From IMG/VR virus record IMGVR_UViG_3300017785_000664, positions 1 through 30,399 of that record: DNA of 30,399 bases. The stretch is one strand, 5' to 3'. This stretch comes from a virus (taxonomy: Duplodnaviria > Caudoviricetes). A model generated the notes under the pieces. That model did not search any database. It was not told the origin of the DNA and saw only the letters and a program-made list of their open reading frames with translations. The position numbers were made by a program, and so were the translations under genes. Below, piece by piece: positions 1 through 16,002 of the stretch (position 1 is its first letter; every line of letters begins with the position of its first letter).

Positions 1-123
1 GGTAATGAAGTTGAAATATATGTTATACAACCTTATGTATCAGGTTTTGACTATTATAGTCCAATAGATTATTCTGGTTCTTTACCTTATGCTTTGCTTG
101 AAGAAAACATAGCAGATTATCAA
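1..123. repeat. Terminal exact repeat (copy 1); circular assembly overlap
   Basis: 1-123 (ggtaatgaag...gattatcaa) is identical to 30277-30399 and lies inside a continuous reading frame. Confidence 0.95.
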
Positions 124-1308
124 ATTAACGATGTACAAAACGGATTTAGTGGTACAAAAGTAATCAACTTCAATAATGGTATTCCTTCTGAAGAAATGCG
201 TGATAAAATGAAGCGTGATGTTATGGGTAAATTAACAGGTGCAAGAGGAGAAAAAGTTATTATTGCTTTTAACGCTAATGCAGAATCTAAAACTACAGTA
301 GAAGATTTACCTTTGAACGATGCACCAGCGCATTACGAGTATTTAAGTAAAGAATGTTTTGATAAGTTAATTGTAGGACATAGAGTTACTTCACCTATGT
401 TATTAGGAATACGTTCTGGTGATGGGGGGTTAGGTAACAATGCAGACGAAATAAAGACTGCTACGCTATTATTTGACAATATAGTTATAAAACCATATCA
501 ATTAGAAATAATAGACGCTATTAATGAAATATTAGCTGTTAATAATATATCTTTAAAACTTTACTTTAAAACAATACAACCTTTAGAATTTGTTGATGTT
601 TCTGGAATGAATGCAGAAACAATAGAAGAAGAAACTGGAGTTAAAATGTGTTCACATAATTTAGCAAGTGATTCTATTGCTGATTTGTTAATTGAAAAAG
701 GAGAAGAATTAAGCGATGAATGGTTTTTAATTGACGAAACAGAAGTTGATTATGATACTGAAGAAGAATTAGATTCTGAAATAAATACTTTAAATAATAA
801 AAAGAAAAGCGCATTATCTAAAATGTGGAAATTTATAACTTCTACAGGTACTGCAAAACCTAATATTAAAAGTCCTGAACAAGATGCTGTTATAGATGGC
901 GTTCAATTTATTACAAGATATAAATATAGCGGGGATTTAAGCGGGGAACGTGAATTTTGCAGTAAAATGTTACGTGCAGATAAAATATATCGTAAAGAAG
1001 ATATTGTTGCAATGGAAACACAAGTAGTAAATTCAGGTTTTGGAAAAGGTGGTTCTGATTCTTATGATGTCTGGTTATACAAAGGCGGAGCAAGATGTAA
1101 CCATAAATGGTTGCGTAGAACTTATGCTAATTTTGATGGTGTTAAAATAGACCCTACAAATCCAAACGCTAAAGCTATTAGTGCTGCAACTGCTGAAAAA
1201 TATGGTTATAGAATCAGAAACGATAAAGAAGTTTCAATGAAACCAAGCGATATGCCTACAAAAGGTTATACACAAAAATATTGGGATAAAATGGGATATA
1301 CAAATTAA
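1..1308 (+). CDS. Portal protein, 3' part (gene starts at 29791 and crosses the join; ~597 aa in total), with C-terminal minor-head-protein-like extension
   Basis: Frame 1 is open from base 1 and in frame with ATG 29791; portal-like motifs NGFSG, HRVTSPMLLGI, GLGNNADEI, VIKPYQ; followed by an adaptor-like gene. Confidence 0.85.
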   Translation, partial: GNEVEIYVIQPYVSGFDYYSPIDYSGSLPYALLEENIADYQINDVQNGFSGTKVINFNNGIPSEEMRDKMKRDVMGKLTGARGEKVIIAFNANAESKTTVEDLPLNDAPAHYEYLSKECFDKLIVGHRVTSPMLLGIRSGDGGLGNNADEIKTATLLFDNIVIKPYQLEIIDAINEILAVNNISLKLYFKTIQPLEFVDVSGMNAETIEEETGVKMCSHNLASDSIADLLIEKGEELSDEWFLIDETEVDYDTEEELDSEINTLNNKKKSALSKMWKFITSTGTAKPNIKSPEQDAVIDGVQFITRYKYSGDLSGEREFCSKMLRADKIYRKEDIVAMETQVVNSGFGKGGSDSYDVWLYKGGARCNHKWLRRTYANFDGVKIDPTNPNAKAISAATAEKYGYRIRNDKEVSMKPSDMPTKGYTQKYWDKMGYTN

Positions 1309-1313
1309 TAAAA

Positions 1314-1814
1314 ATGGCAAAAGCACTCTTTATAACAACAAACGATTTAGTTAAATATACTATTTTAAATGGTAACGTTGACCCTGATACATATACACAA
1401 TATATATTTCAAGCTCAACAAGTACATATCCAAAATTATTTAGGTACTAAATTATATAATAAGATTAACGATGGAATTGTAGCTGGTAATTTAGCAAGTC
1501 CATATACAACGCTTTTAAGCGACTATATTAAAATGATGGTAGTACATTGGACTATGGTAGAGTTTTTACCTTACGCATCTATTAAAATAAGCGAGAAAGG
1601 TGTATTTAAACATAGTTCAGAGAATAGTACTGCGGTTGATAAAACTGAAATAGATTTTTTAATTGAAAAGTCACGTGATACGGCACAAAGTTATACAAAT
1701 CGTTTTATTGATTATATGACTTTCAATCAAGTTTTATTTCCTGAATATAATTTGAATTCTAATGCAGATGTATACCCAGATAAAGACGCAAATTTTTCAG
1801 GATGGGTACTATAA
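1314..1814 (+). CDS. Probable head-tail adaptor/connector protein
   Basis: 166 aa ORF directly after the portal; NGNVD...AQ..HIQNYLGTKLY pattern recalled from Bacteroidota phage head-completion proteins. Confidence 0.55.
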   Translation: MAKALFITTNDLVKYTILNGNVDPDTYTQYIFQAQQVHIQNYLGTKLYNKINDGIVAGNLASPYTTLLSDYIKMMVVHWTMVEFLPYASIKISEKGVFKHSSENSTAVDKTEIDFLIEKSRDTAQSYTNRFIDYMTFNQVLFPEYNLNSNADVYPDKDANFSGWVL

Positions 1815-1897
1815 AAGAAACGTATAAACCAAAAGAAACTAATGTTAAAAAATTAGAAATCTTTTTAAATAAATTAGAAAAGAAAAATGGCGAATAA
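1802..1897 (+). CDS. Small basic hypothetical protein (31 aa, MGTIKETYKPKETNVKKLEIFLNKLEKKNGE)
   Basis: Translated by hand; fills the gap exactly and overlaps both neighbours. Confidence 0.55.
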   Translation: MGTIKETYKPKETNVKKLEIFLNKLEKKNGE

Positions 1898-2414
1898 TAT
1901 AGACTGGGGTCAAGGAGCAAACAATAATACAATAGGATGGGGTCAAGGTGCGTTTAATAATAATATATCTTGGGGTAAATCACATTACACAAGCAATAGT
2001 GGAGAAACAGATATTGTAGGAAACGAAGGTGGGATAGTAACTAATTTTAAAGATAGAATATTATTAGATACAGGTATATTTGAAGCACAATCTTGCTTAC
2101 TAACTATATTAGAAAATTTAGATGTTAATATTGTTATTCCTGATACACCTCCTGCTCCAACAGTTTATTCATTTAGTGTTTCCGAATGTTGTGGTAGTTG
2201 TGAAGCAACAGTATATTCATCTTCTCCTTCAATAATAGTTGGAACTGCTTTATATACTAACATAGGGTTAACTACAGTATTTACAAGTGGCTGCCCTACA
2301 ATAAGAGTAGGCGTATGTCTACCTATTGAAGAGGGAAGTTTTGCTGATGATGGGTTTACATTAAACGGTTCAGGTGTAGTTACGTCTATAAATCAATTTG
2401 TAAACTGTCAATAA
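1887..2414 (+). CDS. Putative virion protein with N-terminal NNxIxWG repeats and Cys-rich C-terminal domain
   Basis: 175 aa ORF with three WG repeats, located in the structural block. Confidence 0.6.
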   Translation: MANNIDWGQGANNNTIGWGQGAFNNNISWGKSHYTSNSGETDIVGNEGGIVTNFKDRILLDTGIFEAQSCLLTILENLDVNIVIPDTPPAPTVYSFSVSECCGSCEATVYSSSPSIIVGTALYTNIGLTTVFTSGCPTIRVGVCLPIEEGSFADDGFTLNGSGVVTSINQFVNCQ

Positions 2415-2438
2415 TTAATTAAAATAAAATAATATATA

Positions 2439-3701
2439 ATGAGTTTATTAGATAAAGCATCGTTAATAGTAACGCCAAACGCATATAAAGCAAGTAAGTT
2501 ATATTCAGTTGTTCCTAATACCACATTAGGAGATATGAATGTAGTTCGCGCTACAACAGCAACAAGGGTAAATAGTTTAGGATTGATTGAAAGTTTAGCA
2601 ATTAATGTTCCCCGTATTGATTACACAAACGGAAGTTGTCCGAGTTTATTGGTTGAATCACAAAGAACTAATTTATTAACTCAAAGCAATAATTTTTCAG
2701 ATGTTGGATGGGAAAAAACTTTTGTTACTGCAACTTTATCTTCAACTGATTTTTTAAATGGAGAAAAATCTTATTTAGTATCTGAAACAGCTCTTGCTGG
2801 AAATCATAATATAGCAAAAATAACAAATGTAAGCGTTGGTGTTACAAACACTTATTCTATTTATTTTAAAAAAGGTACAGGAAGCTCTGCTCCCAATATT
2901 GTTAGATTAAGAGGTTTTTGGGGTGATGCTCTTGTTAATTTTAATATATTAACAGGGACTAAATTATTTCAAAGTGCTTCTGTAATATCTGCATCAATAA
3001 CTCCAGCTTCAAATGGATGGTTTAGATGTACTATGACTTATTCAGGGTTAAGTAATAGTAATAATTATTTTATTGTTCAATTTGTAAACAATACAGATTC
3101 AACGGCAGTTAATTTATCATATGTTGGAAATGTAAATGCTAATGTTTTTGTTGCTGGAGGACAAAATGAAGTTGGCTTAAATGCTACTTCATACATCCCA
3201 ACAGTTGCATCTACAGTAACTCGTAACGCTGATGTTATTTCTAAAACAGGAATAAGTACTTTAATAGGGCAAACAGAAGGAACTATATATGCAGAAATAA
3301 AAGTAAATAAACTTATTGGAACTTCATCAAGATACATATTACACATATCTGATGGAACTGTAAACAATCGTATTTATATGGCTTTTTCAGGCGCAAGCTC
3401 AAACGTAATAAGAGCTAGAATTTTTAATAGTGGTACCTTACAATGTAGTATAAATAGTTCTACTATCACAACAACAGGAACTTATAAATTAGCTTTAGCA
3501 TATAAAAATAATGATATTGTATTTTATATAAATGGAGTTCAAATAGGAACTGATGTAGTAGCTACAATTCCAACCTGTAGCAAAGTAGATATAGGGCATA
3601 ATTACGCGAGTGTTTCACAATTAAATGATGGTATTGCAAATGCAAATATTTTTAAAACAAGACTTTCAAATACTGAACTTGTAAAATTAACAACACTATA
3701 A
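2439..3701 (+). CDS. Tail fibre / receptor-binding protein with carbohydrate-binding and LamG/ConA-like domains
   Basis: PRIDY...CPSLLVE.QRTN, NGWFRC, ATSYIPT...VTRNAD, GQTEGT and YINGVQIG motifs; Ser/Thr/Asn-rich beta protein. Confidence 0.75.
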   Translation: MSLLDKASLIVTPNAYKASKLYSVVPNTTLGDMNVVRATTATRVNSLGLIESLAINVPRIDYTNGSCPSLLVESQRTNLLTQSNNFSDVGWEKTFVTATLSSTDFLNGEKSYLVSETALAGNHNIAKITNVSVGVTNTYSIYFKKGTGSSAPNIVRLRGFWGDALVNFNILTGTKLFQSASVISASITPASNGWFRCTMTYSGLSNSNNYFIVQFVNNTDSTAVNLSYVGNVNANVFVAGGQNEVGLNATSYIPTVASTVTRNADVISKTGISTLIGQTEGTIYAEIKVNKLIGTSSRYILHISDGTVNNRIYMAFSGASSNVIRARIFNSGTLQCSINSSTITTTGTYKLALAYKNNDIVFYINGVQIGTDVVATIPTCSKVDIGHNYASVSQLNDGIANANIFKTRLSNTELVKLTTL

Positions 3702-3702
3702 A

Positions 3703-4002
3703 ATGATATATAAATTAAATTATTTAGACAAAGAAACCGCAATAGCTGATTTACTAGCAAAAGGAGTTTACAATGAAAATTTATCTTACGGACAAGGTAT
3801 TCAAGCTATTGTAGAAATTGGTAAAATTGTTCTAGAAAATGGAACATACGATGCAGACTTTAACGAATTAACTGCTCCTGTTTTTGCTGATGGTTACGCT
3901 TTTGATATTATGTCAGATATTGAAATAGTTTTTGCAAGTGAAATATTTCCTGTAACTCCAAGACATAATTTTGCTGGATGTGAACCAATTAATAATAATT
4001 AA
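3703..4002 (+). CDS. Fibre-associated small protein (possible assembly chaperone)
   Basis: 99 aa ORF coupled to the fibre gene; C-terminal P.H.FAG motif. Confidence 0.55.
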   Translation: MIYKLNYLDKETAIADLLAKGVYNENLSYGQGIQAIVEIGKIVLENGTYDADFNELTAPVFADGYAFDIMSDIEIVFASEIFPVTPRHNFAGCEPINNN

Positions 4003-4012
4003 ATAAATTAAA

Positions 4013-4348
4013 ATGAGTTTAAATTTTTCACATATACAAGGAGATACATTTGAAGCAGTTAATTTCGCTGTTATTAAAAATGCAGTAGTATTAAATTTAA
4101 CTGGCGCTGTAATTAAAATGCAATTAAAAAAAGAATGTGGTGGAGTTCCTATTTTATCATTTACTACAGTTGCAAGTGCTGGTTTAACAATTACAAACGC
4201 TGCTGGAGGATTGTTTAAAATAAACAAACAAATAATTAATATTCCTGAATATAATTATGTGTACGATATTGAAATAACATTTTCAGATGGAAGTGTTAAA
4301 ACTTGGGTAGAAGGTAATTTTGTAATTAAATGTGATATAACAAGATAA
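4013..4348 (+). CDS. Structural protein, BppU-N/Ig-like fibre-attachment domain
   Basis: QGDTF, NLTGA.IKMQ, YVYDIEIT...VKTWVEG pattern. Confidence 0.55.
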   Translation: MSLNFSHIQGDTFEAVNFAVIKNAVVLNLTGAVIKMQLKKECGGVPILSFTTVASAGLTITNAAGGLFKINKQIINIPEYNYVYDIEITFSDGSVKTWVEGNFVIKCDITR

Positions 4349-4349
4349 G

Positions 4350-5024
4350 ATGGCAAACGATATAATTAATATAAATGTTACCGAAACTATTGAAACAGTT
4401 GCAATAACAGTACAACCTAATTTAACTACTATTAATGTAAATCAAAATATTCCTCCTGTCACTTCTGTTAATGGACAAACTGGAAATGTAGTTATTGCTA
4501 TTCCTGAAATTTATTCTTATGGATTATATGCTCAAACTGCTTTAAGTAATATTGTAACTTTTGCAAGTGGCGAAGCTTCAATTGTTGGTGCTGGTGTTGG
4601 AACGTTAAGTGTTCCTGAAGATACATTTAAAGTTGGAGATTCTTTTGCTGTTAGAATGTGTGGAGAATTAACTTGCGCAAACAATGAAGAATTACATATA
4701 CATATTAAATCAAATGGAGTTAAAATAATTGATGGTTTAATATATACATTATCAACTGCAAATAATAAAGGGTGGGAATTAACATTAGATTTTACTATTA
4801 CAAAAATAGGTGGCGCTGGTACTGCTGAAATATTTTCTAATTGTTTATTTACATATAATAAAAACGCAAACAATAATATTGATGGAATTCATTTAAGACA
4901 AATAGAAAAAACAAATTTTAATACAACTATTCAAAATAATTTAACTATAGCAGCTCAATGGATTGGCAGTAGTGGAGTTAATAGAATACAATCACAAAAC
5001 TTTACACTAACAAAAGTTTATTAA
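4350..5024 (+). CDS. Putative second fibre/spike protein
   Basis: 224 aa; VTSVNGQTGNV fibre motif followed by a beta-rich domain. Confidence 0.6.
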   Translation: MANDIININVTETIETVAITVQPNLTTINVNQNIPPVTSVNGQTGNVVIAIPEIYSYGLYAQTALSNIVTFASGEASIVGAGVGTLSVPEDTFKVGDSFAVRMCGELTCANNEELHIHIKSNGVKIIDGLIYTLSTANNKGWELTLDFTITKIGGAGTAEIFSNCLFTYNKNANNNIDGIHLRQIEKTNFNTTIQNNLTIAAQWIGSSGVNRIQSQNFTLTKVY

Positions 5025-5025
5025 A

Positions 5026-5208
5026 ATGAGTAAAGAACAATTTGATATAATATTAAATAAATGGATTTCACGCAAGTTATTAGTTTTCATAATAGCTTGT
5101 ATTGGTTTATTTAACCAAACATTAACGAGCGCTGATTGGGTTGTTATTGCAACTGCTTATATAGGAATACAAGGATTTACAGAAATAGTTACCCAATTAA
5201 AAAAATGA
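5026..5208 (+). CDS. Holin
   Basis: 60 aa, two hydrophobic segments, SRKLLVF and YIG.QG motifs, upstream of the endolysin. Confidence 0.7.
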   Translation: MSKEQFDIILNKWISRKLLVFIIACIGLFNQTLTSADWVVIATAYIGIQGFTEIVTQLKK

Positions 5209-5381
5209 AAAATTATATTTTAGATTTAAAGAGTTCCTTTTTAACAGGAGGGTATTTAGTTTTTACTTTCACAAATGTAGATACAGCTATGAAAGTTTTT
5301 GCTTTTATTATTGCTACAGGATATACTGCTCGTAGATGGTATTTAATGGAAAAGACCAATAAAAATGAAACTGAACAATAG
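5205..5381 (+). CDS. Second small membrane protein (holin/antiholin), 58 aa
   Basis: The ATGA overlap with the holin stop supports a start at 5205 rather than 5136; two hydrophobic stretches and a charged C-terminus. Confidence 0.6.
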   Translation: MKNYILDLKSSFLTGGYLVFTFTNVDTAMKVFAFIIATGYTARRWYLMEKTNKNETEQ

Positions 5382-5811
5382 CGGTTATTTACTTATAACA
5401 GAATTTGAAGGATTTAGTTCAAAACCATATTTGTGTTCCGCAAAGATTGCTACAATAGGATTCGGAAATACTTACTATTCCGATAATAAACGCGTAACAA
5501 TGTTGGACAAAGAAATAAGTAAAGTTCAAGCTTTTGAAATGTTTAAACATATTGCAGATAAATTTGCTAGTACAGTTTCTAAATTAGTTACAAGTCCTTT
5601 AAATCAAAATCAATTTAACGCATTAGTTTCAATAGCTTATAATATTGGAACAGGTAATTTTGCAAGTTCTACATTATTAAAAAAAGTAAATAAAAATCAC
5701 AATGATATTTCTATTGAATTAGAATTTAAAAAGTGGAATAAAGTAAATAAAAAAGAAGTAGCAGGTTTAACTAAAAGAAGATTATATGAAAGCAAAGTTT
5801 ATTTTTCTTAA
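5365..5811 (+). CDS. Endolysin, GH24 (T4/P1-type) lysozyme
   Basis: E15-X8-C24-X5-T30 triad, TIGFG, QNQFNALVS.AYNIG, SSTLLKK, GLTKRR..E. Confidence 0.92.
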   Translation: MKLNNSGYLLITEFEGFSSKPYLCSAKIATIGFGNTYYSDNKRVTMLDKEISKVQAFEMFKHIADKFASTVSKLVTSPLNQNQFNALVSIAYNIGTGNFASSTLLKKVNKNHNDISIELEFKKWNKVNKKEVAGLTKRRLYESKVYFS

Positions 5812-6280
5812 TATCATATGTGGTGCACTTTTATTATCTTGCGCATCTCGTAAAGTAAATACACAAATATCAGAAGTTAAAAAAGATAGTTTAGTAGTAA
5901 CGCTTGTAGATACTAAAATAGAAACTAAAAAAGACACTGATTCAGAAACTAATATAAACACATTTATAGATAGTGATGAAATTATAATAAAACCTTTAGA
6001 TAGTTTAAAAGAAATTATTGTAGATGGTAAACATTATAAAAACGTTGTTTTAACGATTAAAAAAACTAAAACTAATAGTTTATATAACAATAAAGAAAAA
6101 GTGTCAGAAAACGCTTTAAAACAACAAAAGAAATCAATTAATATACAAACCAAACAAGTTGAAAATAAGAAATCAAAAGTTATAGATAAAAAAGCAAATT
6201 ATTTTATTTATTTATGGTTTTTATTAGGTTTAATTATTCTTTATTTAATATATAAATATAAAAGGTTTTTTTTAATTTAA
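5786..6280 (+). CDS. Lipoprotein, probable unimolecular spanin
   Basis: Lipobox LLSC (Cys19) plus C-terminal transmembrane helix YFIYLWFLLGLIILYLIY with basic tail; directly after the endolysin. Confidence 0.7.
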   Translation: MKAKFIFLNIICGALLLSCASRKVNTQISEVKKDSLVVTLVDTKIETKKDTDSETNINTFIDSDEIIIKPLDSLKEIIVDGKHYKNVVLTIKKTKTNSLYNNKEKVSENALKQQKKSINIQTKQVENKKSKVIDKKANYFIYLWFLLGLIILYLIYKYKRFFLI

Positions 6281-6374
6281 GTTATATTTAAAAGAAAGAA
6301 AAGAAAAACAAAAGAAGCGTAAGAAAATAAAAAGAAAATAAAGAAAAAGCCCATAGAAAAAGTTATTTTCAAAT

Positions 6375-6436
6375 TACCTGTTCCAAATAGCTTCCTTCTT
6401 TATTAGGTTCTATAAGTCTACAACGCATTGGAAGTA
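6375..6436 (-). ncRNA. Candidate structured (pseudoknotted) antisense RNA
   Basis: Nested stems 6381-6386/6428-6433 and 6387-6393/6414-6421, crossing pair 6376-6379/6405-6408; begins just downstream of a minus-strand TACATTTG. Confidence 0.4.
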
Positions 6437-6444
6437 CAAATGTA
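6437..6444 (-). promoter_or_regulatory. Bacteroidota -7 element TACATTTG on the minus strand
   Basis: Plus strand CAAATGTA matches TAnnTTTG in reverse; intergenic; TTTA ~20 nt upstream at the -33 position. Confidence 0.5.
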
Positions 6445-6472
6445 TAATAATAATTCTAATTCTTAAAATTTG

Positions 6473-6494
6473 TTATTAACACAAAAGTTAATAA
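6473..6494. promoter_or_regulatory. Inverted repeat TTATTAAC-N6-GTTAATAA (DnaA-box-like pair / operator)
   Basis: Perfect 8-bp inverted repeat between two divergent -7 elements; TTATTAACA is two mismatches from TTATCCACA. Confidence 0.4.
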
Positions 6495-6502
6495 GTGATA
6501 TT

Positions 6503-6510
6503 TATATTTG
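6503..6510 (+). promoter_or_regulatory. -7 element TATATTTG for the NinG-like gene (near-leaderless)
   Basis: Matches TAnnTTTG; ends 4 nt before ATG 6515. Confidence 0.55.
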
Positions 6511-6514
6511 ACAA

Positions 6515-6889
6515 ATGAAAAAACCAACACGCAAGTCATTAGTAATAAAATTAGATACTATCTTTAGTCAATATATAAGACAAAAAGATGCTGTTAATGA
6601 AATAGCTACTTGCGTTACTTGTGGAAAAAAAGACCATTGGAAGAAATTACAAAACGGGCATTTTATGTCACGTTCACATTATTCAACAAGATGGGACGAA
6701 AACAACGTTGGAGTTCAATGTTATGGATGCAATATATCTCGGTCAGGAGAACAATTCAAATTTAGTCAATATCTTGGTAATAACTTATCTGAAGAATTAC
6801 AAATTAAATCAAAACAAATAGTTAAATTTGCTGATATAGATTTAATAGACTTAATTAACTACTATACCGAAAAGGTAAATAATATATAA
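6515..6889 (+). CDS. ninG: NinG/Rap-like recombination endonuclease
   Basis: LD.IFSQYIR.KD, CVTCG, GHFMSR....TRWDE.N...QC..CN. Confidence 0.85.
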   Translation: MKKPTRKSLVIKLDTIFSQYIRQKDAVNEIATCVTCGKKDHWKKLQNGHFMSRSHYSTRWDENNVGVQCYGCNISRSGEQFKFSQYLGNNLSEELQIKSKQIVKFADIDLIDLINYYTEKVNNI

Positions 6890-6921
6890 AATTCTGTTTC
6901 TTTGTTTCATTGTTGAAAATT

Positions 6922-6950
6922 GGGTGTCTATTTTAGATACCCTTTTTTTT
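6922..6950 (+). terminator. Intrinsic terminator
   Basis: GGGTGTCTA-TTT-TAGATACCC followed by T8. Confidence 0.9.
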
Positions 6951-6957
6951 GCTATAA

Positions 6958-7018
6958 GTTAAAGTTTTGTTAAAAAAAATTAAAATAGTTTTATATTAAA
7001 AAACAAGTTATATATTTG
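6958..7018 (+). promoter_or_regulatory. Early promoter: GTTAA-N6-GTTAA (6958-6973) plus TATATTTG (7011-7018)
   Basis: Same architecture and 53-nt offset recur at 12471. Confidence 0.75.
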
Positions 7019-7048
7019 TCAAACAATTAATAATTAAAACATTTAAAA

Positions 7049-7138
7049 ATGAAACAGAATTTAAAAGACTTCGCATCAGCATTACTATTCGTATTTACGT
7101 TTGGAATGATTTATTTAACATTAACATCTTTATTATAA
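7049..7138 (+). CDS. 29-aa single-pass membrane peptide (MKQNLKDFASALLFVFTFGMIYLTLTSLL)
   Basis: First ATG after the promoter, A-rich leader, TAATG coupling to the next ORF. Confidence 0.65.
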   Translation: MKQNLKDFASALLFVFTFGMIYLTLTSLL

Positions 7139-7317
7139 TGAAAGACTTATTAGATTACAACAGATTTAGAATGGAAGTTATGCAAAAACATATTTGCGAA
7201 CTTGAAGGAAAACTAACAAAGCTACAAAGTTTTTGTTTTGAAGTACTGGATGAAGATTGTCCAAAAGAATACAAAACATTAGTAAAAAAAGAAATTTATA
7301 ATTTAACACAAAACTAA
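7138..7317 (+). CDS. Hypothetical protein, 59 aa (MKDLLDYNRFRMEVMQKHICELE...)
   Basis: Translated by hand; coupled to genes on both sides. Confidence 0.75.
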   Translation: MKDLLDYNRFRMEVMQKHICELEGKLTKLQSFCFEVLDEDCPKEYKTLVKKEIYNLTQN

Positions 7318-7318
7318 A

Positions 7319-7900
7319 ATGGAACAAACATTAAACCAAAAACTGTCTTTAATTCAAAAAGAATTTAAAGCAAACAAATCAAAATTTAACTCATTCGGTA
7401 AATATAACTTTAGAAGTGCTGAAGATATATTAGAAGCATTAAAACCTTATAATGAAAAATACCAAGTAAGTTTTATAATTACAGAAAGGATAGTTTCAAG
7501 CTTTGATAGTAATAGTAATTTTCCGCCAATGTTAAAATCAATAGCAACTATTTTAGATAACAATGGAGTTAATAAAATATCAGCTACAGCTATTGTTGGA
7601 ATTGACTTAAATCAAAAAGGTATGCAAGTACCACAACAATTTGGTTCTGCATCTTCTTATGGAAAAAAATACGCATTAGGTAACTTATTACTTATTGATG
7701 ACACACAAGATTCAGACGCATCTAATAAACACGAAAAAACAGCAATAGGATTTCCTAAATTAGAAGAATTAAAATGGTTAAATAAAAATACACCTGAATT
7801 TAAAAAAGCTATTGAATATTTAAAAAATGGTGGTAGTATTGCAACTATTGAAAGTAAGTATAAAATGACTAAAGAAACAAAAGAAGAATTAACTAAATAA
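7319..7900 (+). CDS. erf: ERF-family single-strand annealing recombinase
   Basis: FGKYNFRSAEDIL, Q.FGSASSYGKKYAL...LLIDDTQDSD (ERF GS..TY..RYAL...D.D motif). Confidence 0.88.
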   Translation: MEQTLNQKLSLIQKEFKANKSKFNSFGKYNFRSAEDILEALKPYNEKYQVSFIITERIVSSFDSNSNFPPMLKSIATILDNNGVNKISATAIVGIDLNQKGMQVPQQFGSASSYGKKYALGNLLLIDDTQDSDASNKHEKTAIGFPKLEELKWLNKNTPEFKKAIEYLKNGGSIATIESKYKMTKETKEELTK

Positions 7901-7955
7901 AGCTGAATAGCCGACAACAGTAAAATAAGGTAGGCAATAAATAAAAACAAATAAT

Positions 7956-8252
7956 ATGAGTGCATTAATTAATTTTAGTTTAAGAATTGACAAATTACCA
8001 AAAGAAAAATTTGTTATCGGAAAAGATGGAGCAGTTTACTACAATGGAACTATTTCTATTAATGATGAAACAAATCAGTTTGGACAAAATGTTTCAATTA
8101 CAGATTCTCAAACACAAGAAGAAAGAGAAGCAAAGAAACCTAAAACTTATTTAGGAAATGGAAAAGTAGTATGGAGTGATGGTAAAATTACAAACGCTAC
8201 AAAACAAGAATCAAAAGCAGTTGAATTAGAAACTGCTGATTTACCATTTTAA
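7956..8252 (+). CDS. ssb: Single-stranded DNA-binding protein (Bacteroidota phage type)
   Basis: Follows ERF; YLGNGKVVW motif; acidic C-terminal DLPF tail. Confidence 0.75.
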   Translation: MSALINFSLRIDKLPKEKFVIGKDGAVYYNGTISINDETNQFGQNVSITDSQTQEEREAKKPKTYLGNGKVVWSDGKITNATKQESKAVELETADLPF

Positions 8253-8259
8253 ATTAATC

Positions 8260-8284
8260 AGGGAGTGTAACAGCTCCCTTTTTT
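8260..8284 (+). terminator. Intrinsic terminator/attenuator after ssb
   Basis: AGGGAGT-GTAACA-GCTCCCT then a T run. Confidence 0.8.
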
Positions 8285-8295
8285 AAACAAAACAA

Positions 8296-9144
8296 ATGAC
8301 AATAGACAAAGACGAACATAGACTTATAATGCAAGTTTTGATAGAAGAAGCTACTATCAATCCTTTAGAAAAAATAGATTACCCAACACCAGCTATTTCA
8401 TTTGGAACAAAAGCATACGAAACAAAAGATGGGTTATTAGAATATCCTATTCCAATAGGAACATACGGAAATTTTAGTTTTGTACAAGCACCACCGAAAT
8501 CAAAGAAAACATTTTTTATTAGTTTACTTTCTGCAGTTTATTTAAACGGACAATTAAATGGAATAAGCGGAGATTTAAAAGGTAATAGAGACAACAAACA
8601 TTTAGTACATTTTGATACAGAACAAGGTAACTTTCACGCACAAATGGTTTTTAAACGACCAATTGAAATGACTGGAACTATTACTGATAAATATCATACA
8701 TTAGCTTTAAGACAATATTCTGCAAAAGATAGAGTTGATTTAATAGAATTCTATTTATACGATACATTAGACAAAAAAGATATTGGATTGGTAATTATTG
8801 ATGGTATTGCAGATTTATGTAGCGATGTAAATAATATAGAAGAATCAAATTTAGTTGTTCAAAAGTTAATGAAATGGACAAAAGAATTAAATTGCCATAT
8901 AATAACAGTAATCCATTCTAATTTTGGAACTGATAAACCCACAGGGCATTTAGGTTCAGCATTAGAAAAGAAAGCAGAAACACAAATTCAATTAGAATTA
9001 AACACAGTAAACAAAGATTTAGTAACCGTAAGTTGTAAACGTTCCAGAAACGCAGGGTTTGAAAACTTTAGTTTTAAAGTAAACAAATCAGGATTACCAC
9101 AAGTTGAAGGAGATTTTTACGATGTAATGAAAGGAGTATTTTAA
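8296..9144 (+). CDS. RecA-fold (AAA_25 / RepA / DnaB-like) helicase ATPase
   Basis: Variant Walker A APPKSKKT, FDTEQG, Walker B VIIDGIAD, VIH.N...K..GHLGS.LEKKAET, SRN arginine finger. Confidence 0.8.
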   Translation: MTIDKDEHRLIMQVLIEEATINPLEKIDYPTPAISFGTKAYETKDGLLEYPIPIGTYGNFSFVQAPPKSKKTFFISLLSAVYLNGQLNGISGDLKGNRDNKHLVHFDTEQGNFHAQMVFKRPIEMTGTITDKYHTLALRQYSAKDRVDLIEFYLYDTLDKKDIGLVIIDGIADLCSDVNNIEESNLVVQKLMKWTKELNCHIITVIHSNFGTDKPTGHLGSALEKKAETQIQLELNTVNKDLVTVSCKRSRNAGFENFSFKVNKSGLPQVEGDFYDVMKGVF

Positions 9145-9434
9145 TGGAAACAACAATTAAGAATCACGTAGAAGAATTACAGCTATCAGCTGAAAGAATG
9201 TTATTATTGCATTCAGATAACAAAGTGTTAATAAGTTATTTCAAAGACTTAAAACAAAAGTTAGTATATTTGAAACAATTAAGTATGATAGAAACAAAGT
9301 TTCAATGGAATGAATTAGAAAACATAATTAATTTATTGCAAAAACAAGATTCTCAAATAACTAATATACATATTGATTTAGAAGTTAAAGAAAGTAAAGA
9401 TAAAAATAACGCTTATTTAAAAATAAAACTATGA
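9144..9434 (+). CDS. Hypothetical protein
   Basis: 96 aa, TAATG-coupled. Confidence 0.7.
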   Translation: METTIKNHVEELQLSAERMLLLHSDNKVLISYFKDLKQKLVYLKQLSMIETKFQWNELENIINLLQKQDSQITNIHIDLEVKESKDKNNAYLKIKL

Positions 9435-9652
9435 TACTAATTTCATTTATACTGTTTACTATTTATTTCTTAATGCAATTAATGGTAAAATACGACGGCG
9501 ATGTAATAATAGCACCAATAAAAGGCTTAATGTTTGGTGCATTATACAATGACGATATTGATAATAGAGAAACAGAACACACTATTCAAATAGTGCTTTT
9601 CGTAATATCAATAACATTTATATGGATAACAACAAATGGCTCGAAAAAGTAG
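9431..9652 (+). CDS. Hypothetical membrane protein
   Basis: 73 aa, hydrophobic termini, ATGA-coupled. Confidence 0.65.
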   Translation: MILISFILFTIYFLMQLMVKYDGDVIIAPIKGLMFGALYNDDIDNRETEHTIQIVLFVISITFIWITTNGSKK

Positions 9653-10164
9653 CCGTACATCACAAAGAATGGGTTAAGATTATAAATGGATTTGGAGAAT
9701 TTGATTATGCTGAAGATATAGTCCAAGAAAGTTATATAGCTTTATGGAAATATGCAGATGCTGATAAAATTTTAGATTCAGAAGGAAATGTTAGAAAAGG
9801 ATATGTTTATTTTACTTTACGAAGTTTATATTTTCAGTATTATAATAAGAAAATGAAAATAACTAAAGTACCTTTTGATGGCTGTTGGGAATTATTTGAT
9901 GATTCAAACATTGAAGAACACAAAGCGTATAATAATATATGTTTAATGATTGATAAAGAAATAGATAATTGGCACTGGTATGATAAAAAGCTGTTTAAAC
10001 TTTATAGAGATACAGATATGTCAATGCGAGATATAGCAAAAGAAACAAACATTAGTTTAATATCTATATTTCATTCAATTAAAAACTATAAAGAAATACT
10101 TAAAAACAAATTTCAAAAAGATTACAACGATTATAATATTAACGATTACAATAACACTTACTAA
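9622..10164 (+). CDS. ECF-like sigma-70 family factor (probable late-gene sigma)
   Basis: Region-2 motif AEDIVQESYIALW and region-4 HTH MSMRDIAKETNISLISIFHSIK; 180 aa. Confidence 0.82.
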   Translation: MDNNKWLEKVAVHHKEWVKIINGFGEFDYAEDIVQESYIALWKYADADKILDSEGNVRKGYVYFTLRSLYFQYYNKKMKITKVPFDGCWELFDDSNIEEHKAYNNICLMIDKEIDNWHWYDKKLFKLYRDTDMSMRDIAKETNISLISIFHSIKNYKEILKNKFQKDYNDYNINDYNNTY

Positions 10165-10172
10165 TTAAAATT

Positions 10173-10550
10173 ATGGCTAAAAAAAATGCACAAGGTTTGG
10201 GAGACACTATTGAACAAATCACAGAAGTAACTGGAATCAAAAAAGTAGTAGAATTATTTTCATCCGTAACAGGTTTAGATTGCGGTTGCGATGAACGAAA
10301 AGCAAAGTTAAATAAATTATTTCCTTATAACGGAAACATTAATTGTTTGACTGAAAAAGATTATAACGCTTTAACGGAATTAATTTCACCAAACAAAATT
10401 GAATTAACACCTGAGGAGCAAAATTTAATTTCTGAAATTTACCTTAATGTATTCAATTATCGTTTACAGTTATCTTCCTGCGGTTCTTGTTGGGCAGGTA
10501 AAATACAAGAATTAAGAAAAGTATACAACGAATACAAAATTAATGATTAA
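10173..10550 (+). CDS. Conserved Cys-rich phage protein (probably Zn-binding)
   Basis: GLGDTIEQIT, DCGCDERK..LN and SCGSC motifs. Confidence 0.7.
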   Translation: MAKKNAQGLGDTIEQITEVTGIKKVVELFSSVTGLDCGCDERKAKLNKLFPYNGNINCLTEKDYNALTELISPNKIELTPEEQNLISEIYLNVFNYRLQLSSCGSCWAGKIQELRKVYNEYKIND

Positions 10551-10944
10551 TTGGAAAGAAGTTGATTTATTTAATTGGCTAAAAGAAAATATATATCCTG
10601 ATTTAGTCAAAGCAAAGAATCAAATGTCAAGGTGGGATTGTTATAGTCCCACCACTGGGCATAGATTGGAACTAAAATGTAGAAAAGCACATTACCCTAC
10701 ATTACTATTAGAAAAGAAGAAATACGATGCAATGAAACAAGAATGCGAAAAGCATTTAGATACACCAATGTATTTTAATTCAACTCCAAAAGGAATTTAT
10801 AGTTTTAATCTAAATCTAATTATCCCAGAATGGGAAATAAATAATAAAAACCCAGCAACAACACAATTTTATAATACACAAAGAATAGAAAAAGAAGTAG
10901 CATATTTAGAAATAACAAAAGCAAAACAATGGAAAACAATATAA
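10543..10944 (+). CDS. PD-(D/E)XK-like nuclease
   Basis: WDC...RLELKCR motif. Confidence 0.6.
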   Translation: MINWKEVDLFNWLKENIYPDLVKAKNQMSRWDCYSPTTGHRLELKCRKAHYPTLLLEKKKYDAMKQECEKHLDTPMYFNSTPKGIYSFNLNLIIPEWEINNKNPATTQFYNTQRIEKEVAYLEITKAKQWKTI

Positions 10945-11285
10945 TACAATTAGAATATTTAAAATCAGTTCTATTAAGTCAATTACTTTTAGAATCAAAC
11001 GAAAGTTTATTTTTTACAAAACAATACAAGCAACAAATTAAACATAAAATAAATAGTTTAAATAAAGACTTGGAAGAAATTGTACGAGATGAATACAAAA
11101 TCATTTACGATACAGATGCAGAAACAACTACTAATATATTAAGAAGCATAGAAGCAATAGTTAAAAAGCTACAAACAAGTTCAATAGACGAGTTAGTATT
11201 TATAAATGCAGTTATCGACAAATATAAAGAAAATAAAGAATGGTTTACTGAAAATTGTTCTACTGATTTTTTAAAATTAGGTTAA
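10929..11285 (+). CDS. Hypothetical protein
   Basis: 118 aa helical ORF overlapping the upstream gene. Confidence 0.7.
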   Translation: MENNIIQLEYLKSVLLSQLLLESNESLFFTKQYKQQIKHKINSLNKDLEEIVRDEYKIIYDTDAETTTNILRSIEAIVKKLQTSSIDELVFINAVIDKYKENKEWFTENCSTDFLKLG

Positions 11286-11286
11286 T

Positions 11287-11859
11287 ATGAAAATATGTAT
11301 TAAATGTAAAATAGAAAAAGAAGATATTAATTTTCATAAAGATATACGTATGAAAAATGGATTAAGGTCAGATTGTAAAGATTGTGTAAAAATATATTGT
11401 ATAAAAAATAAAGAAATAAGAAAAAAAAATAATATAAAATTTCGTGAAATAAATAAAGACTATATAATTAAATATAGAAAAGAACATTATCAAATAAATA
11501 AAGAACGTATATTAAAACAAACAAAATTATATACTAATAATAAATTAAAAACTGATTCATTATTTAAATTAAGTGTTTATATAAGAAATTTAATTGGATA
11601 TTCTATTAGAAAAAAAGAATATACTAAAAATTTAAAATCACATAAAATATTAGGATGTTCAATAGAAGAATTTAAAGAACATTTAGAAAAACAATTTACT
11701 GAAGGTATGAATTGGGAAAATGCAGGAAAATGGCATCTTGACCATATTTATCCAGTTTCATTAGCAACTGACGAAAAACATTTAATACAACTTAATCACT
11801 ACACTAATTTTCAACCACTTTGGGCTATAGATAATATAAGAAAAAGTAATAAAATTTAA
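11287..11859 (+). CDS. HNH endonuclease with N-terminal Zn finger (homing-endonuclease-like)
   Basis: CIKC...CKDC; WHLDHIYP...NHYTNFQPLWAIDNIRKSNK; Lys/Ile-rich linker. Confidence 0.85.
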   Translation: MKICIKCKIEKEDINFHKDIRMKNGLRSDCKDCVKIYCIKNKEIRKKNNIKFREINKDYIIKYRKEHYQINKERILKQTKLYTNNKLKTDSLFKLSVYIRNLIGYSIRKKEYTKNLKSHKILGCSIEEFKEHLEKQFTEGMNWENAGKWHLDHIYPVSLATDEKHLIQLNHYTNFQPLWAIDNIRKSNKI

Positions 11860-11860
11860 A

Positions 11861-12136
11861 ATGGCTAAAAAACAAATCATTCAATATAAACCTACGGATG
11901 AAGAATTTAAAGCAATGAAAATTTGTTTGGATAATGATTTAGCATATTATATAGAAAGAAATAAAGATTCAAGTTATTATGTAATTAAATACAGACCTTC
12001 TAATTATAAGTTAATAAACTATTTAGCTATTGATACAAAGTTAGAAGCAACACCAAGTAATAGACAAACGTTTAACGAATATGAAGGAATGAAGAAAGTA
12101 ATGGATTTATATAAACAACACTCAAAAAGATTTTAA
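11861..12136 (+). CDS. Hypothetical protein
   Basis: 91 aa ORF within the operon. Confidence 0.7.
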   Translation: MAKKQIIQYKPTDEEFKAMKICLDNDLAYYIERNKDSSYYVIKYRPSNYKLINYLAIDTKLEATPSNRQTFNEYEGMKKVMDLYKQHSKRF

Positions 12137-12342
12137 TGAAAGACACAATAGTAGAAGCAGTAGTAAACAAATTTAAACAACGTTCTGAAGTAGGAATAAA
12201 GAAATATGGAGTTACATTAGACAGAGAAGATTTAACTACATTACAATGGATAGAACACGCAATAGAAGAAGCAATGGATTTAACATTGTATTTAGAAAAA
12301 CTTAAAAGAAAAATATATTTAATAGAAAATGGCAAAGACTAG
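12136..12342 (+). CDS. Small all-alpha protein, possible MazG-like nucleotide pyrophosphohydrolase
   Basis: G.KKYG.TLDR.DL...W..HA.EEAMD..LYL motif. Confidence 0.5.
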   Translation: MKDTIVEAVVNKFKQRSEVGIKKYGVTLDREDLTTLQWIEHAIEEAMDLTLYLEKLKRKIYLIENGKD

Positions 12343-12457
12343 ATTTAAACCGCTAACAAGAATAAACAGAGTACTTGAATTTTATCACTCAAGAGGAATA
12401 AATTCAGAAAGAGTTAATAAAGTTTATCGTAATATTATTAAGCTACCTAAACAGTAG
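12329..12457 (+). CDS. Basic hypothetical protein, 42 aa (MAKTRFKPLTRINRVLEFYHSRGINSERVNKVYRNIIKLPKQ)
   Basis: Translated by hand; overlaps the upstream stop and ends inside the terminator. Confidence 0.6.
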   Translation: MAKTRFKPLTRINRVLEFYHSRGINSERVNKVYRNIIKLPKQ

Positions 12458-12465
12458 CTTTTTTT
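12440..12465 (+). terminator. Intrinsic terminator
   Basis: AAGCTAC-CTAAACA-GTAGCTT followed by a T run. Confidence 0.8.
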
Positions 12466-12470
12466 ATTTT

Positions 12471-12531
12471 GTTAATATTATGTTAATTTTTATTAAAAAG
12501 TTTTTTAGTATTAATAACTTGTTTATATTTG
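12471..12531 (+). promoter_or_regulatory. Early promoter: GTTAA-N6-GTTAA (12471-12486) plus TATATTTG (12524-12531)
   Basis: 53-nt offset identical to the 6958 site; follows a terminator. Confidence 0.75.
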
Positions 12532-12554
12532 TATAAAAATAAAAAACAAACACT

Positions 12555-12725
12555 ATGAACAAAACAGAAATTTTAACTAAATTAGAAAGTGTTATTTGGT
12601 TAATGAATGAAATCGAAAACACTTATGTTAGAAATGAACTCCAATTAATTGCAGATGCTTTAGTAAAAGATTGGAATGAATCAGATGATTATTATGAACA
12701 AATAAAACAAACGTTAAATGGATAA
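12555..12725 (+). CDS. Hypothetical protein, 56 aa (MNKTEILTKLESVIWLMNEIENTY...)
   Basis: First ATG after the promoter; A-rich leader; overlaps the next start. Confidence 0.7.
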   Translation: MNKTEILTKLESVIWLMNEIENTYVRNELQLIADALVKDWNESDDYYEQIKQTLNG

Positions 12726-12921
12726 TGAAATAAAAGAAAGAGCATACATCAAAGTAAGATGTAAAATAAATGCTTTAAACAGAGAAGAACAAGATTATGT
12801 TTATCAAATAACAACTGGTAAAACAGATTTAGAAGAAGATATTTTATATAGAATGTTAGATTCAACCACAAGAGAATTAAAAGTTTGGGAGTATATATTA
12901 ACTTTAATAAATAACGGATGA
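12718..12921 (+). CDS. Hypothetical protein
   Basis: 67 aa, ATGA-coupled to the exonuclease. Confidence 0.7.
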   Translation: MDNEIKERAYIKVRCKINALNREEQDYVYQITTGKTDLEEDILYRMLDSTTRELKVWEYILTLINNG

Positions 12922-13631
12922 TTTTATTATTTGATGCTGATAGTTTAATATTTGCTAGTTGTTATAAAAGAAAAGAACACGAAAACGACGAGCAATTTTA
13001 TACTGATATTAATTTATCAATACATAAATTTGATGAAGGTTTTATGAAAATTATTAATGATTTAGAAGAAACATACGAAATTGAAAAAGTATTAGTTTTT
13101 TCTGGTTCAAAAGGTAATTTTAGGAAATATTTATCTCCTAAATATAAAGCAAATAGAATAGGTGGGATATTACCACCATTATTAAATGATATGCACAAAT
13201 TCGTGAAAGAAAGTTATGATTCAATAGTTGGGTATGGAGTTGAAACGGATGATATGGTGGCAAGATATTGGTATAATTTATCTAAAGAACACGGAAGAAA
13301 CAATGTTATGATAATTTCAATAGATAAAGACTATAAACAATTTCCTTGTTTGATGTATAACTATCATTTTAAACATAGATGTGTTTATGATATATCAAAA
13401 GAACAAGCAATGTATAATTTCTATGAGCAAATGATTATTGGAGATACAGCGGATAATGTTCAATACTGTAAAGGTTACGGAAAGAAATATGCAGAAAAAT
13501 TATTTGTAGGATGTGATTCACATTATAAATATACTAAAAGAGTTTATGAATTATTTAAGAATATACATAAAGGAAAAGCAAAGCAGCGCTATATTGAATG
13601 TTATAATTTATTAAAATTAAGAACTAATTAA
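12918..13631 (+). CDS. 5'-3' exonuclease / flap endonuclease (T7 gp6 / phage RNase H-like)
   Basis: LFDADS, NFRK...YKANR, ETDD, SIDKD, GDTADNV...KGYG.K.A motifs. Confidence 0.9.
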   Translation: MILLFDADSLIFASCYKRKEHENDEQFYTDINLSIHKFDEGFMKIINDLEETYEIEKVLVFSGSKGNFRKYLSPKYKANRIGGILPPLLNDMHKFVKESYDSIVGYGVETDDMVARYWYNLSKEHGRNNVMIISIDKDYKQFPCLMYNYHFKHRCVYDISKEQAMYNFYEQMIIGDTADNVQYCKGYGKKYAEKLFVGCDSHYKYTKRVYELFKNIHKGKAKQRYIECYNLLKLRTN

Positions 13632-13633
13632 AA

Positions 13634-13684
13634 GTTAAAAAAATGTTAATTAATTTTATTTATTAGAATATATAATTAATTTTA
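13634..13684 (+). promoter_or_regulatory. Probable promoter for the glycosyltransferase cassette: GTTAA-N6-GTTAA (13634-13649) plus TAATTTTA (13677-13684)
   Basis: Exact direct-repeat motif; -7 element with one mismatch at a 43-nt offset. Confidence 0.55.
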
Positions 13685-13711
13685 CAAAACAATTTAAAAT
13701 CAAAAAAAACT

Positions 13712-14110
13712 ATGAAACAAATAAATTTATTCGGAAATGAATTTAAACAAGATGAAAATGAAAAAAAATATTCATCAAAAATTGAAGCACCTATTTATGA
13801 ACCTAAAAATATAAAACCACATATTTTAGAATTAGTAAATAAAGAAAAAACTCATAGATTGATGCGTGAAATTGATAATTCAAATTTACCTATTGAAGAA
13901 AAAACTTTTTTAATAGATGCAGCAAGAAGGCATAATGTATTTAATTATGAAAAAATAGCTGATTATTATGCAAATTCAAATAAAGAAATGCAAAACTTAA
14001 TGGAAAAATCAGCACTTGTAATAATAGATTTTGAAAAAGCAATTCAATTAGGTTATGTTAGATTATGTGATGAAATAAGAACACAATATTTAGAAGAATA
14101 TGGAGAATAA
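13712..14110 (+). CDS. Glycosyltransferase-partner protein of unknown function
   Basis: 132 aa; KY..KI..PIYEP, FL..AA.RH.VFNY..IADYYA, SALVIIDF.KAI..GYV; overlaps the GT start. Confidence 0.75.
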   Translation: MKQINLFGNEFKQDENEKKYSSKIEAPIYEPKNIKPHILELVNKEKTHRLMREIDNSNLPIEEKTFLIDAARRHNVFNYEKIADYYANSNKEMQNLMEKSALVIIDFEKAIQLGYVRLCDEIRTQYLEEYGE

Positions 14111-14927
14111 AGATTTTGCTGTGTTTATATTAACACACGGAAGACCTGATAATGTTAAAACATTAAGGCTAATAAATGCTAGAGGATATACTGGAAAGGT
14201 TTATTTTGTTGTAGATAATGAAGATAAAACTCTTGATAGGTATATTAAAAACTTTGGTATTGATAATGTTAAAGTGTTTGATAAAAAATCAATGGCTGAT
14301 AAAATTGATGAGGGAAATAATTTTGATAATAGAAAAGTAATTATACACGCAAGAAATTATTGCTTTGAATTAGCAAAAGAATTAGGTATAACTTACTTTA
14401 TTCAATTTGATGATGATTACTATTCTCTTGGTTATAGATACATTGAAGGAGAGAGAAAAATAAATAATCTTAATAAGGTTTTTGATATAATGCTTAAATA
14501 TTATAAAAGCTGTAATATTCTATCTATTTGCTTTTCTCAAGGTGGAGACCATATTGGTGGATTTAGTGGTATAAAATTAAAGAGAAAAGCTATGAATAGT
14601 TTTTTATGCTCAACCGAGAGACCTTTTCAATTTATTGGAAGTATAAATGAAGATGTAAACACATATACAACACTTGGTAGTAGAGGTGAATTATTTTTTA
14701 CATTTACAAATATAAACCTATCTCAAGGAGATACTCAAAGTAATAAAGGAGGAATGTCAGATGAATATGCTTTAAGTGGAACTTATGTAAAGTCTTTTCA
14801 TAGTGTTATGATGCAACCAAGTTCGGTTAAAGTATCTATGATGAACTCAAAGAATACAAGGCTACATCATTCAATTAAATGGATTAATACTACGCCTATG
14901 ATATTAAATGATAAATATAAAAAATAA
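14100..14927 (+). CDS. GT-A fold glycosyltransferase, TAGT/GREB1-like (candidate DNA base glycosyltransferase)
   Basis: FILTHGRPD, ARNYCF, QFDDDY (DxD), INEDV, TQSNKGGM motifs. Confidence 0.75.
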   Translation: MENKDFAVFILTHGRPDNVKTLRLINARGYTGKVYFVVDNEDKTLDRYIKNFGIDNVKVFDKKSMADKIDEGNNFDNRKVIIHARNYCFELAKELGITYFIQFDDDYYSLGYRYIEGERKINNLNKVFDIMLKYYKSCNILSICFSQGGDHIGGFSGIKLKRKAMNSFLCSTERPFQFIGSINEDVNTYTTLGSRGELFFTFTNINLSQGDTQSNKGGMSDEYALSGTYVKSFHSVMMQPSSVKVSMMNSKNTRLHHSIKWINTTPMILNDKYKK

Positions 14928-16000: not shown

Positions 16001-16002
16001 AG

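Follow-up and report, generated by a model that had tools for sequence, protein, structure and literature searches.

The gap between the late and early gene modules of this phage (6281–6514) likely holds a new gene, found in phages of Flavobacterium type, for a non-coding RNA read leftward, and we consider it rather probable that a structured RNA is made leftward there. What is observed is a promoter box, two hairpins, conserved unpaired letters, and a mirror tract, always in that order. As a tentative account of the whole, we propose that a small non-coding RNA is transcribed leftward, that its mirror pyrimidine tail may clamp the purine strand of its own locus, and that the resulting structure may be used for opening or priming DNA. 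The window, meaning the entire stretch of DNA analysed, spans 30,399 bp (27.8% G+C) and corresponds to a complete virus record of IMG/VR that has direct terminal repeats.

Genomic context, relatives, and predicted promoters of the gap

All plausible genes of the window are carried on the plus strand. Placement with PHROGs and Pfam put the boundary between the late and early modules at the gap, as follows.

Left of the gap, plus strand: end of the late module, with tail genes, an endolysin (5365–5811), and a 164-aa gene (5786–6280)
Right of the gap, plus strand: start of the early module, with NinG/Rap (6515–6889) and Erf (7319–7900)
Further right: early module, with an AAA_25 helicase-like gene (8296–9144), a sigma-like protein, and a 5'-3' exonuclease (12918–13631)

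The large terminase (TerL) has 55% identity to Flavobacterium psychrophilum phages and the DNA is of freshwater and lake metagenome type, and a Bacteroidota-type promoter grammar was therefore applied. At 234 nt, the gap is the third longest non-coding gap in the ORF set used here, after 16234–16517 (284 nt) and 6890–7137 (248 nt), and not the largest, as the original prediction had it. The same prediction found no primase. This agrees with PHROGs and partial Pfam scans of the window, which recognised neither a DNA polymerase nor a primase; the replication-related genes recognised are the AAA_25 helicase-like gene and the 5'-3' exonuclease. GC skew is uniformly positive without an inflection, giving no origin signal anywhere in the window, and one-mismatch DnaA boxes occur at nine sites (10.3 expected), none of them in the gap. 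A scan for tRNA and tmRNA genes found none. Cultured phage records contain no DNA relative of 5000–8000 except for short pieces of the endolysin.

The longest non-coding gap, 16234–16517, has short direct and inverted repeats and is located just after a 168-aa protein (region 15494–16000) and before the terminase. This protein has a sub-threshold match to the DnaA C-terminal HTH domain (29 bits, cut-off 31.5), and the gap might serve as another origin or as a packaging site. At 14100–14927 the window encodes a TET-associated glycosyltransferase (Pfam TAGT, E 1e-33), which suggests that the phage DNA bears a glycosylated modified base. The sole classical terminator-like hairpin and T-run in 5000–8000 is found just after NinG (6922–6942), where it would separate this first early gene from Erf and the rest.

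IMG/VR contains 382 NinG relatives, and the best 80 of the 382 were used for comparisons of the family. As a rule, the gap ahead of NinG is ~200–330 nt among relatives. A block around 6374–6440 is confined to a subset of them and occurs as one copy per genome; most of the NinG family does not have the element. Copies of the block were gathered by degenerate pattern scans of viral and metagenome contigs. This yielded 35 sequences including the window, of which 29 are distinct over the region and were used to construct an alignment (A4, 23 distinct rows). One pattern match (L111) was an unrelated sequence and was omitted from the alignments, and L132, a contig that ends 11 nt after the block, was omitted from promoter and tract counts. 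When a covariance model of the block was compared with 46 other NinG-relative loci, the window itself was the single match. Two degenerate block patterns gave no matches in 185,579 bacterial species genomes; at that stringency, these genomes gave no hint of a host homologue of the block or of attP-like identity to a host gene. Presence of the block is patchy with respect to NinG identity (it occurs at 98%, is missing at 90%, and recurs at 88% and 81%), and the gap therefore behaves as an exchangeable cassette. In two metagenome DNA runs, the gap was seen solely as a variant of the L134 type.

Other arrangements ahead of NinG were seen by eye. Most family members (seen in L007–L017 and L059–L082) have no block; their last late gene is followed by a hairpin and T-run, after which come plus-strand T-rich repeats, three to five in number and ~13 nt each, and the leftward TAnnTTTG box as in the window. 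A DnaA-box-like nonamer is present in some of these hairpin loops. L018, L024, L034, L036, L041, and L050 have an extra ORF inserted between the gap and NinG, with a C-terminal peptide that looks like a GIY-YIG homing endonuclease.

Two predicted promoters are located in the gap.

6437–6444, minus strand (read from 6444 to 6437): -7 box TACATTTG of sigma-A type, a leftward promoter predicted from motif and conservation
6476–6514, plus strand: predicted divergent early promoter, with TTAAC (6476–6480), GTTAA (6487–6491), and a -7 box TATATTTG (6503–6510)

The leftward box had been described as the only credible minus-strand promoter. It is present and conserved, but it is not the only one, as TAnnTTTG occurs 38 times on the minus strand of the window. 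Both strands together have 68 occurrences (61 ± 8 expected), and the box alone is not special. TAnnTTTG is found 8–19 nt before the AUGCGU of hairpin H1 (below) in all 28 element-bearing sequences counted, with six versions of its two free letters and with flanks that are unalignable between groups. Across the family, 56 of 74 distinct regions upstream of NinG have a minus-strand box 55–135 nt before the ATG, mostly at 70–99 nt, compared to a background rate of 0.087 per such stretch. The sigma-A box of Flavobacterium psychrophilum is reported at -12 to -5 (PMC9723704), and by this rule the leftward transcript is predicted to begin near 6432, ahead of H1 by one or two bases. The proposed succession of promoter and structure was borne out: the conserved box is immediately followed by a conserved structured element, for which the minus strand is a better fit than the plus strand, and next comes a conserved polypyrimidine tract (polypurine in the template).

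The plus-strand box TATATTTG ends four bases before the NinG ATG at 6515 and is kept in nearly all of the NinG relatives listed. The same rule (PMC9723704) places the start at the A of this ATG, and the NinG mRNA is thus predicted to be leaderless. The inverted repeat over the upstream promoter region has 6-bp arms (TTAACA/TGTTAA) in most relatives, and its spacing is kept family-wide. Back-to-back promoters are predicted at this gap across the family, with the leftward one conserved whatever its transcript. In 5000–8000, a sigma-70 scan found promoter-like sites at chance frequency (22 vs 20.5), and the sole terminator-like site was the one after NinG (6922–6942), with none on the minus strand. 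Freshwater metatranscriptome contigs match NinG (6543–6746) and Erf (7530–7699) exactly and no other part of 1–20000; pieces at 6300–6343 have five to six mismatches and foreign flanks. These data are kept as contigs from which strand is not readable, and they have no bearing on whether the element is transcribed. The NinG and Erf contigs hint weakly at expression of the early operon.

Hairpins H1 and H2

Alignment A4 was folded with RNAalifold, which returned the same two hairpins independently on each strand. From the promoter leftward, the element and its flank consist of the following.

6421–6430, minus strand: hairpin H1, with pairs 6430–6421, 6429–6422, and 6428–6423 and an invariant loop (6427–6424)
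6414–6419, minus strand: unpaired linker AGACUU between H1 and H2, identical in 29/29 sequences of A4
6387–6413, minus strand: hairpin H2, with pairs 6413–6387, 6412–6388, 6411–6389, 6410–6390, 6407–6394, and 6406–6395
6372–6386, minus strand: conserved unpaired stretch after H2 (UUGGAACAGGUAA..), nearly invariant in A4 and with no covarying partner in the helix scan
6348–6371, minus strand: spacer with a short G-rich patch, conserved in outline and variable in its letters in the 21 tract-type sequences, with no pairing partner

Comparative evidence for H1 and H2 as base pairing in a single-stranded nucleic acid is strong. On the minus strand, all 207 cells of the nine pairs are standard pairs and four of the nine pairs vary on both sides. 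Covariation is 0.448, compared to 0.153 in shuffles (0/500 as high) and at most 0.056 for slid partners. Across the 23 rows, the three H1 pairs are never unpaired and occur, from the outermost inward, as CG 19, GC 3, GU 1; AU 15, GC 7, UA 1; and AU 23. The four outer H2 pairs occur as GU 11, GC 9, AU 3; CG 20, AU 2, UA 1; AU 23; and GC 14, AU 4, UA 4, CG 1, so that 6410/6390 is seen as G-C, A-U, U-A, and C-G. The two inner pairs (6407/6394 and 6406/6395) have no variation. The H2 loop is A/U-rich and near-invariant, and throughout the element conservation is higher in unpaired letters than in stems. No covarying helix other than H1 and H2 was found in the 21 tract-type sequences. Folding energy of the 67-nt element is no better than that of shuffles (z 0.13), and structural support is therefore comparative and not thermodynamic. 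For the minus strand, minimum free energy prediction gives another structure, with a marginal z of -2.2 (plus strand, z 0.3). Ten to eleven nucleotides of the H2 loop (6400–6409) have a second exact copy at 6221–6230, in the 3' end of the upstream 164-aa gene. This copy was rejected as a trans target, as four of five complete relatives carry the element copy alone.

The original prediction was an H-type pseudoknot formed by two stems and a loop-to-tail pairing. All of its bases are in place and complementary in the window, and pairing holds in 82.4% of cells over the relatives, for the most part in columns that do not vary. For these 17 pairs, however, covariation on A4 is no higher than in shuffles (0.066 vs 0.067, 228/500 as high), and one pair has a two-sided change. 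In the first stem (6433–6428/6386–6381), 6383–6386 never varies while its partner 6428–6431 does, and the helix is 39% paired. The second stem (6421–6414/6393–6387) is displaced by H2, with 6420/6388 unpaired in 18 of 23 rows, and the 4-bp loop pairing (6408–6405/6379–6376) has four uncompensated breaks at 6407/6377 and no compensatory changes. With H1 and H2 using the same bases and covarying, we regard the pseudoknot as drawn as extremely improbable.

Evidence on the strand comes from G·U pairs. Read on the plus strand, these nine H1 and H2 pairs are 94.2% paired with 12 A·C cells (11 at 6387/6413 and one in H1), all of which are G·U on the minus strand, where 6413/6387 runs through G-C, G·U, and A-U. 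The H1 loop reads UGCG on the minus strand, which we take to fit the UNCG pattern, and CGCA on the plus strand. One observation clouds the choice of strand: the plus strand gains an extra pair at 6420/6431 (U·G 22, C-G 3, A·G 4) that is A·C on the minus strand. These patterns are moderately in favour of an element read on the minus strand. An AUG-led minus-strand frame from the invariant AUG in H1 has 19 codons in the window. In most relatives it is closed at codon 3 (UGA), and a 1-nt indel in the H2 loop shifts the frame in A4; the element is therefore not coding. As had been noted, it matches no known RNA family: Rfam 15 gave no matches at the gathering threshold in the whole window. At E values up to 10, 6100–6700 yielded nothing other than a chance mgtC-leader match inside NinG, and the loci of four relatives yielded snoRNA-type chance matches only. 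A CRISPR-repeat or antitoxin mimic was considered, and the Rfam scans were negative.

The mirror tract and its replacement

The plus-strand purine tract described originally was confirmed, with 62 purines in the 72 nt of 6289–6360. It includes the most purine-rich 60-nt window of the genome (92% purine) and is A-rich with few G. A leftward RNA across it would be ~86% pyrimidine. Most of the tract is a mirror repeat.

6290–6347, no strand assigned: 58-bp homopurine/homopyrimidine mirror repeat (H-motif), with arms 6290–6316 and 6321–6347 and centre 6317–6320

The arms are 27 nt long with two mismatches (25/27 positions) around a 4-nt centre, and none of 300 shuffles reaches this score. Among the 21 tract-type sequences, 18 have arms of 20–28 nt with at most two mismatches (0/300 shuffles each), most of them perfect, and the remaining three (L134, L138, and L153) have short 13-nt arms that are not significant. 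Both arms are shortened together, without the same unit, in L130, L137, L141, and L142, and T interruptions occur at mirrored places in both arms of L139, L146, and L147. Mirror repeats are neither made nor kept by ordinary mutation. The only functional property described as established for them is triplex formation by long homopurine–homopyrimidine repeats (PMC12214015, PMC11667243), and on sequence grounds the mirror tract is a signature of it. Both parts of an H-DNA motif are present, namely a homopurine/homopyrimidine tract and mirror symmetry around a short spacer. The nearest candidate for a third, complementary tract on the same strand is 6199–6246, which is 73–92% matched in short pieces and lies in the upstream ORF. 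An intrastrand triplex repeat, with three tracts and many dispersed copies, was rejected because two mirror arms only and one copy per genome were found.

In seven of the 29 sequences (L125, L128, L129, L131, L135, L143, and L148), the purine tract is replaced by ~130 nt of unrelated sequence.

421–673 of the L148 locus, plus strand of that locus (minus-strand sense here): alternative module, from covarying helices

This module has a 7-bp helix with three two-sided changes and an enclosing 4-bp helix with three. By eye, two further helices cross the first ones, a CGCCAA-type helix and a 13-nt helix that is wholly different between L148, L131, and L135; one A·C/G·U case in its helix Ha also favours the minus strand. 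A helix drawn from three close alternative-type sequences (CAGGUAA/UUACCUG) was discarded, as by eye it is broken in L131, L135, and L143. There was no Rfam match to the module, which is a candidate pseudoknotted RNA. Across the NinG family, the leftward transcribed sequence takes at least three unrelated forms.

The tract could also act as DNA. It would then be a one-way barrier (R-loop or H-DNA) that stops rightward late transcription before the early genes, while the hairpin block would be a signal for protein binding or in single-stranded DNA, and the leftward box would be a weak or incidental promoter. The tract is exactly at the end of the late operon, no classical terminator follows 6280 in the window, and most relatives show by eye a hairpin and then a T-run at the same place. 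For rightward transcription, the non-template strand is the purine-rich one, an orientation reported to block RNA polymerase through R-loops (PMC3561996), and RNA–DNA hybrids are reported to form on GAA·TTC in live bacteria (PMC2018641). Strong blockage is tied to G-richness (PMC3561996), however, and the tract is A-rich with few G. A DNA-level element would also leave unexplained the covarying pairs with G·U intermediates in 12 cells, the family-wide conservation of the leftward box, and the constant position of the block between box and tract. We consider this reading, barrier and DNA signal jointly, unlikely.

Possible roles and comparison with known systems

In the account that we tentatively prefer, host sigma-A RNA polymerase would start leftward at about 6432. 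The two hairpins would then serve as a 5' handle, a protein-binding or stabilising domain that is bound by a partner or protects the 5' end, and the polymerase would go on to copy the tract into two U/C-rich, mirror-image arms. Owing to the mirror symmetry, the U/C arm made first has just the sequence required for parallel Hoogsteen pairing with the second arm's purine strand, to which the second arm itself could remain Watson-Crick paired, and the product would be a triplex-stabilised RNA–DNA structure at the late/early junction. Its likeliest use would be opening or priming DNA, as at a transcription-dependent origin such as T4 oriF/oriG or ColE1, which is the weakest step. Action in cis is favoured because the locus itself is the only perfectly matching purine strand known, and opening or priming DNA is thought likeliest because no primase was recognised.

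Several findings count against parts of this account. H1 has only three pairs and H2 has four plus two, no leftward terminator was found in 5000–8000, and the other candidate origin site (16234–16517), next to the protein with the DnaA-C-like HTH, counts against an origin here. A predicted promoter is aimed at 6290–6347, as expected for an R-loop-primed origin, and the RNA is not on the purine- or G-rich side. R-loop blockage is reported to arise when the purine strand is the non-template strand, i.e., when the RNA is purine-rich (PMC3561996). An R-loop origin is disfavoured by this orientation because the leftward RNA is pyrimidine-rich on a purine template, and mirror symmetry would provide a triplex route to a stable RNA–DNA structure despite it. 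Given that the tract is replaced in seven of the 29 sequences and that the element is missing from most of the family, a tract-dependent origin cannot be general.

Alternatively, the leftward small RNA could be an ordinary regulator that does not act on DNA. We rate this as possible, if on balance improbable. It could be antisense to the lysis and late genes (the 164-aa gene, 5786–6280, and the endolysin, 5365–5811), silencing them early or marking read-through late RNA for cleavage, or it could act as a decoy for a host factor, bound by way of the conserved unpaired letters and the long U/C tail. A purine-rich plus-strand RNA counterpart could also be its triplex partner. Regulation shares the promoter, structure, and strand evidence with the cis-acting triplex, and it fits a leftward promoter conserved family-wide ahead of at least three unrelated transcribed sequences, as well as patchy forms with respect to NinG identity, which are expected of fast-evolving regulatory or anti-defence cassettes. 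The element adjoins the lysis genes, and unpaired letters that are more conserved than stems are typical of a binding surface. Neither simple pairing nor the binding of a protein requires mirror symmetry, however. The end of the nearest gene is at 6280, leaving antisense overlap as a candidate only, and 5000–8000 contains no minus-strand terminator-like site. No conserved trans target was found: the second copy of the H2 loop is absent from four of five complete relatives, and two degenerate patterns had no match in the 185,579 bacterial species genomes.

A bolder form of the triplex account is a phage 'triplex clamp' RNA, in which a two-hairpin handle carries mirror U/C arms that would wrap a purine strand through U·A-U and C+·G-C triples. 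Such an RNA might start replication or insulate early from late transcription, and it would be interchangeable with the pseudoknotted RNA module of sister phages. We think this speculative and doubtful; the strand wrapped would be that of the phage's late/early junction, either its DNA or the purine-rich 3' end of the late RNA.

Transcription-dependent (R-loop) origins include T4 oriF(uvsY) and oriG(34), ColE1 RNA II, and the T7 primary origin. The phage element resembles them in a predicted promoter that leads into a non-coding, strand-asymmetric, easily opened stretch and in a phage without a recognisable primase. It further resembles ColE1 RNA II in that a structured 5' RNA part precedes the hybrid-forming part. 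In contrast, its RNA would be U/C-rich, which disfavours a hybrid, and its sequence is not similar to theirs. We know of no requirement for a mirror repeat at R-loop origins, and the phage tract is one.

The tract resembles H-DNA and GAA·TTC tracts in being homopurine/homopyrimidine and mirror-symmetric, with arms of 20–28 nt and a 4-nt centre. Such tracts are reported to stall polymerases and form RNA–DNA hybrids, bacteria included (PMC3561996, PMC2018641), and the motifs described in these sources are mostly eukaryotic or disease repeats (PMC11667243, PMC12214015, PMC3561996, PMC2018641). Unlike these repeats, the phage tract has an attached promoter and structured RNA domain, occurs as one conserved copy at a fixed place, and is A-rich and not G-rich.

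Cis-antisense small RNAs of phages include lambda OOP, P22 sar, and P1/P7 c4. A short leftward non-coding transcript is likewise predicted here, from a constitutive-type promoter and against neighbouring genes at a regulatory junction. The element differs from these RNAs in having no terminator found, no similarity to them, and target overlap only as a candidate. To our knowledge, OOP, sar, and c4 have no mirror-repeat tail. Functionally, the nearest counterparts of the element would be the T4 and ColE1 origins, in which a promoter adjoins an unwinding region, or phage antisense RNAs. By the features compared, the element is a member of none of R-loop origins, H-DNA repeats, or phage antisense RNAs, although its tract is a textbook H-motif. 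Within a non-exhaustive set of literature, available in part, no such element or phage small RNA was found in phages of Bacteroidota.

If the leftward unit is real, an abundant freshwater Flavobacterium-type phage family (382 NinG relatives in IMG/VR) bears a conserved leftward non-coding unit at its late/early junction, one form of which joins a selected mirror repeat to a handle of structured RNA. Few triplex motifs in bacteria and phages are under selection with a clear role in the genome, and the co-variation from arm to arm provides a natural test set. Should the tract be merely a terminator-like barrier, it would still be a useful annotation of how late and early transcription are separated. 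If true, the leftward unit would supply phages of Bacteroidota with a first candidate for a non-coding RNA and with a candidate for an origin or insulator; these are phages whose promoters and translation signals differ from those of model systems.
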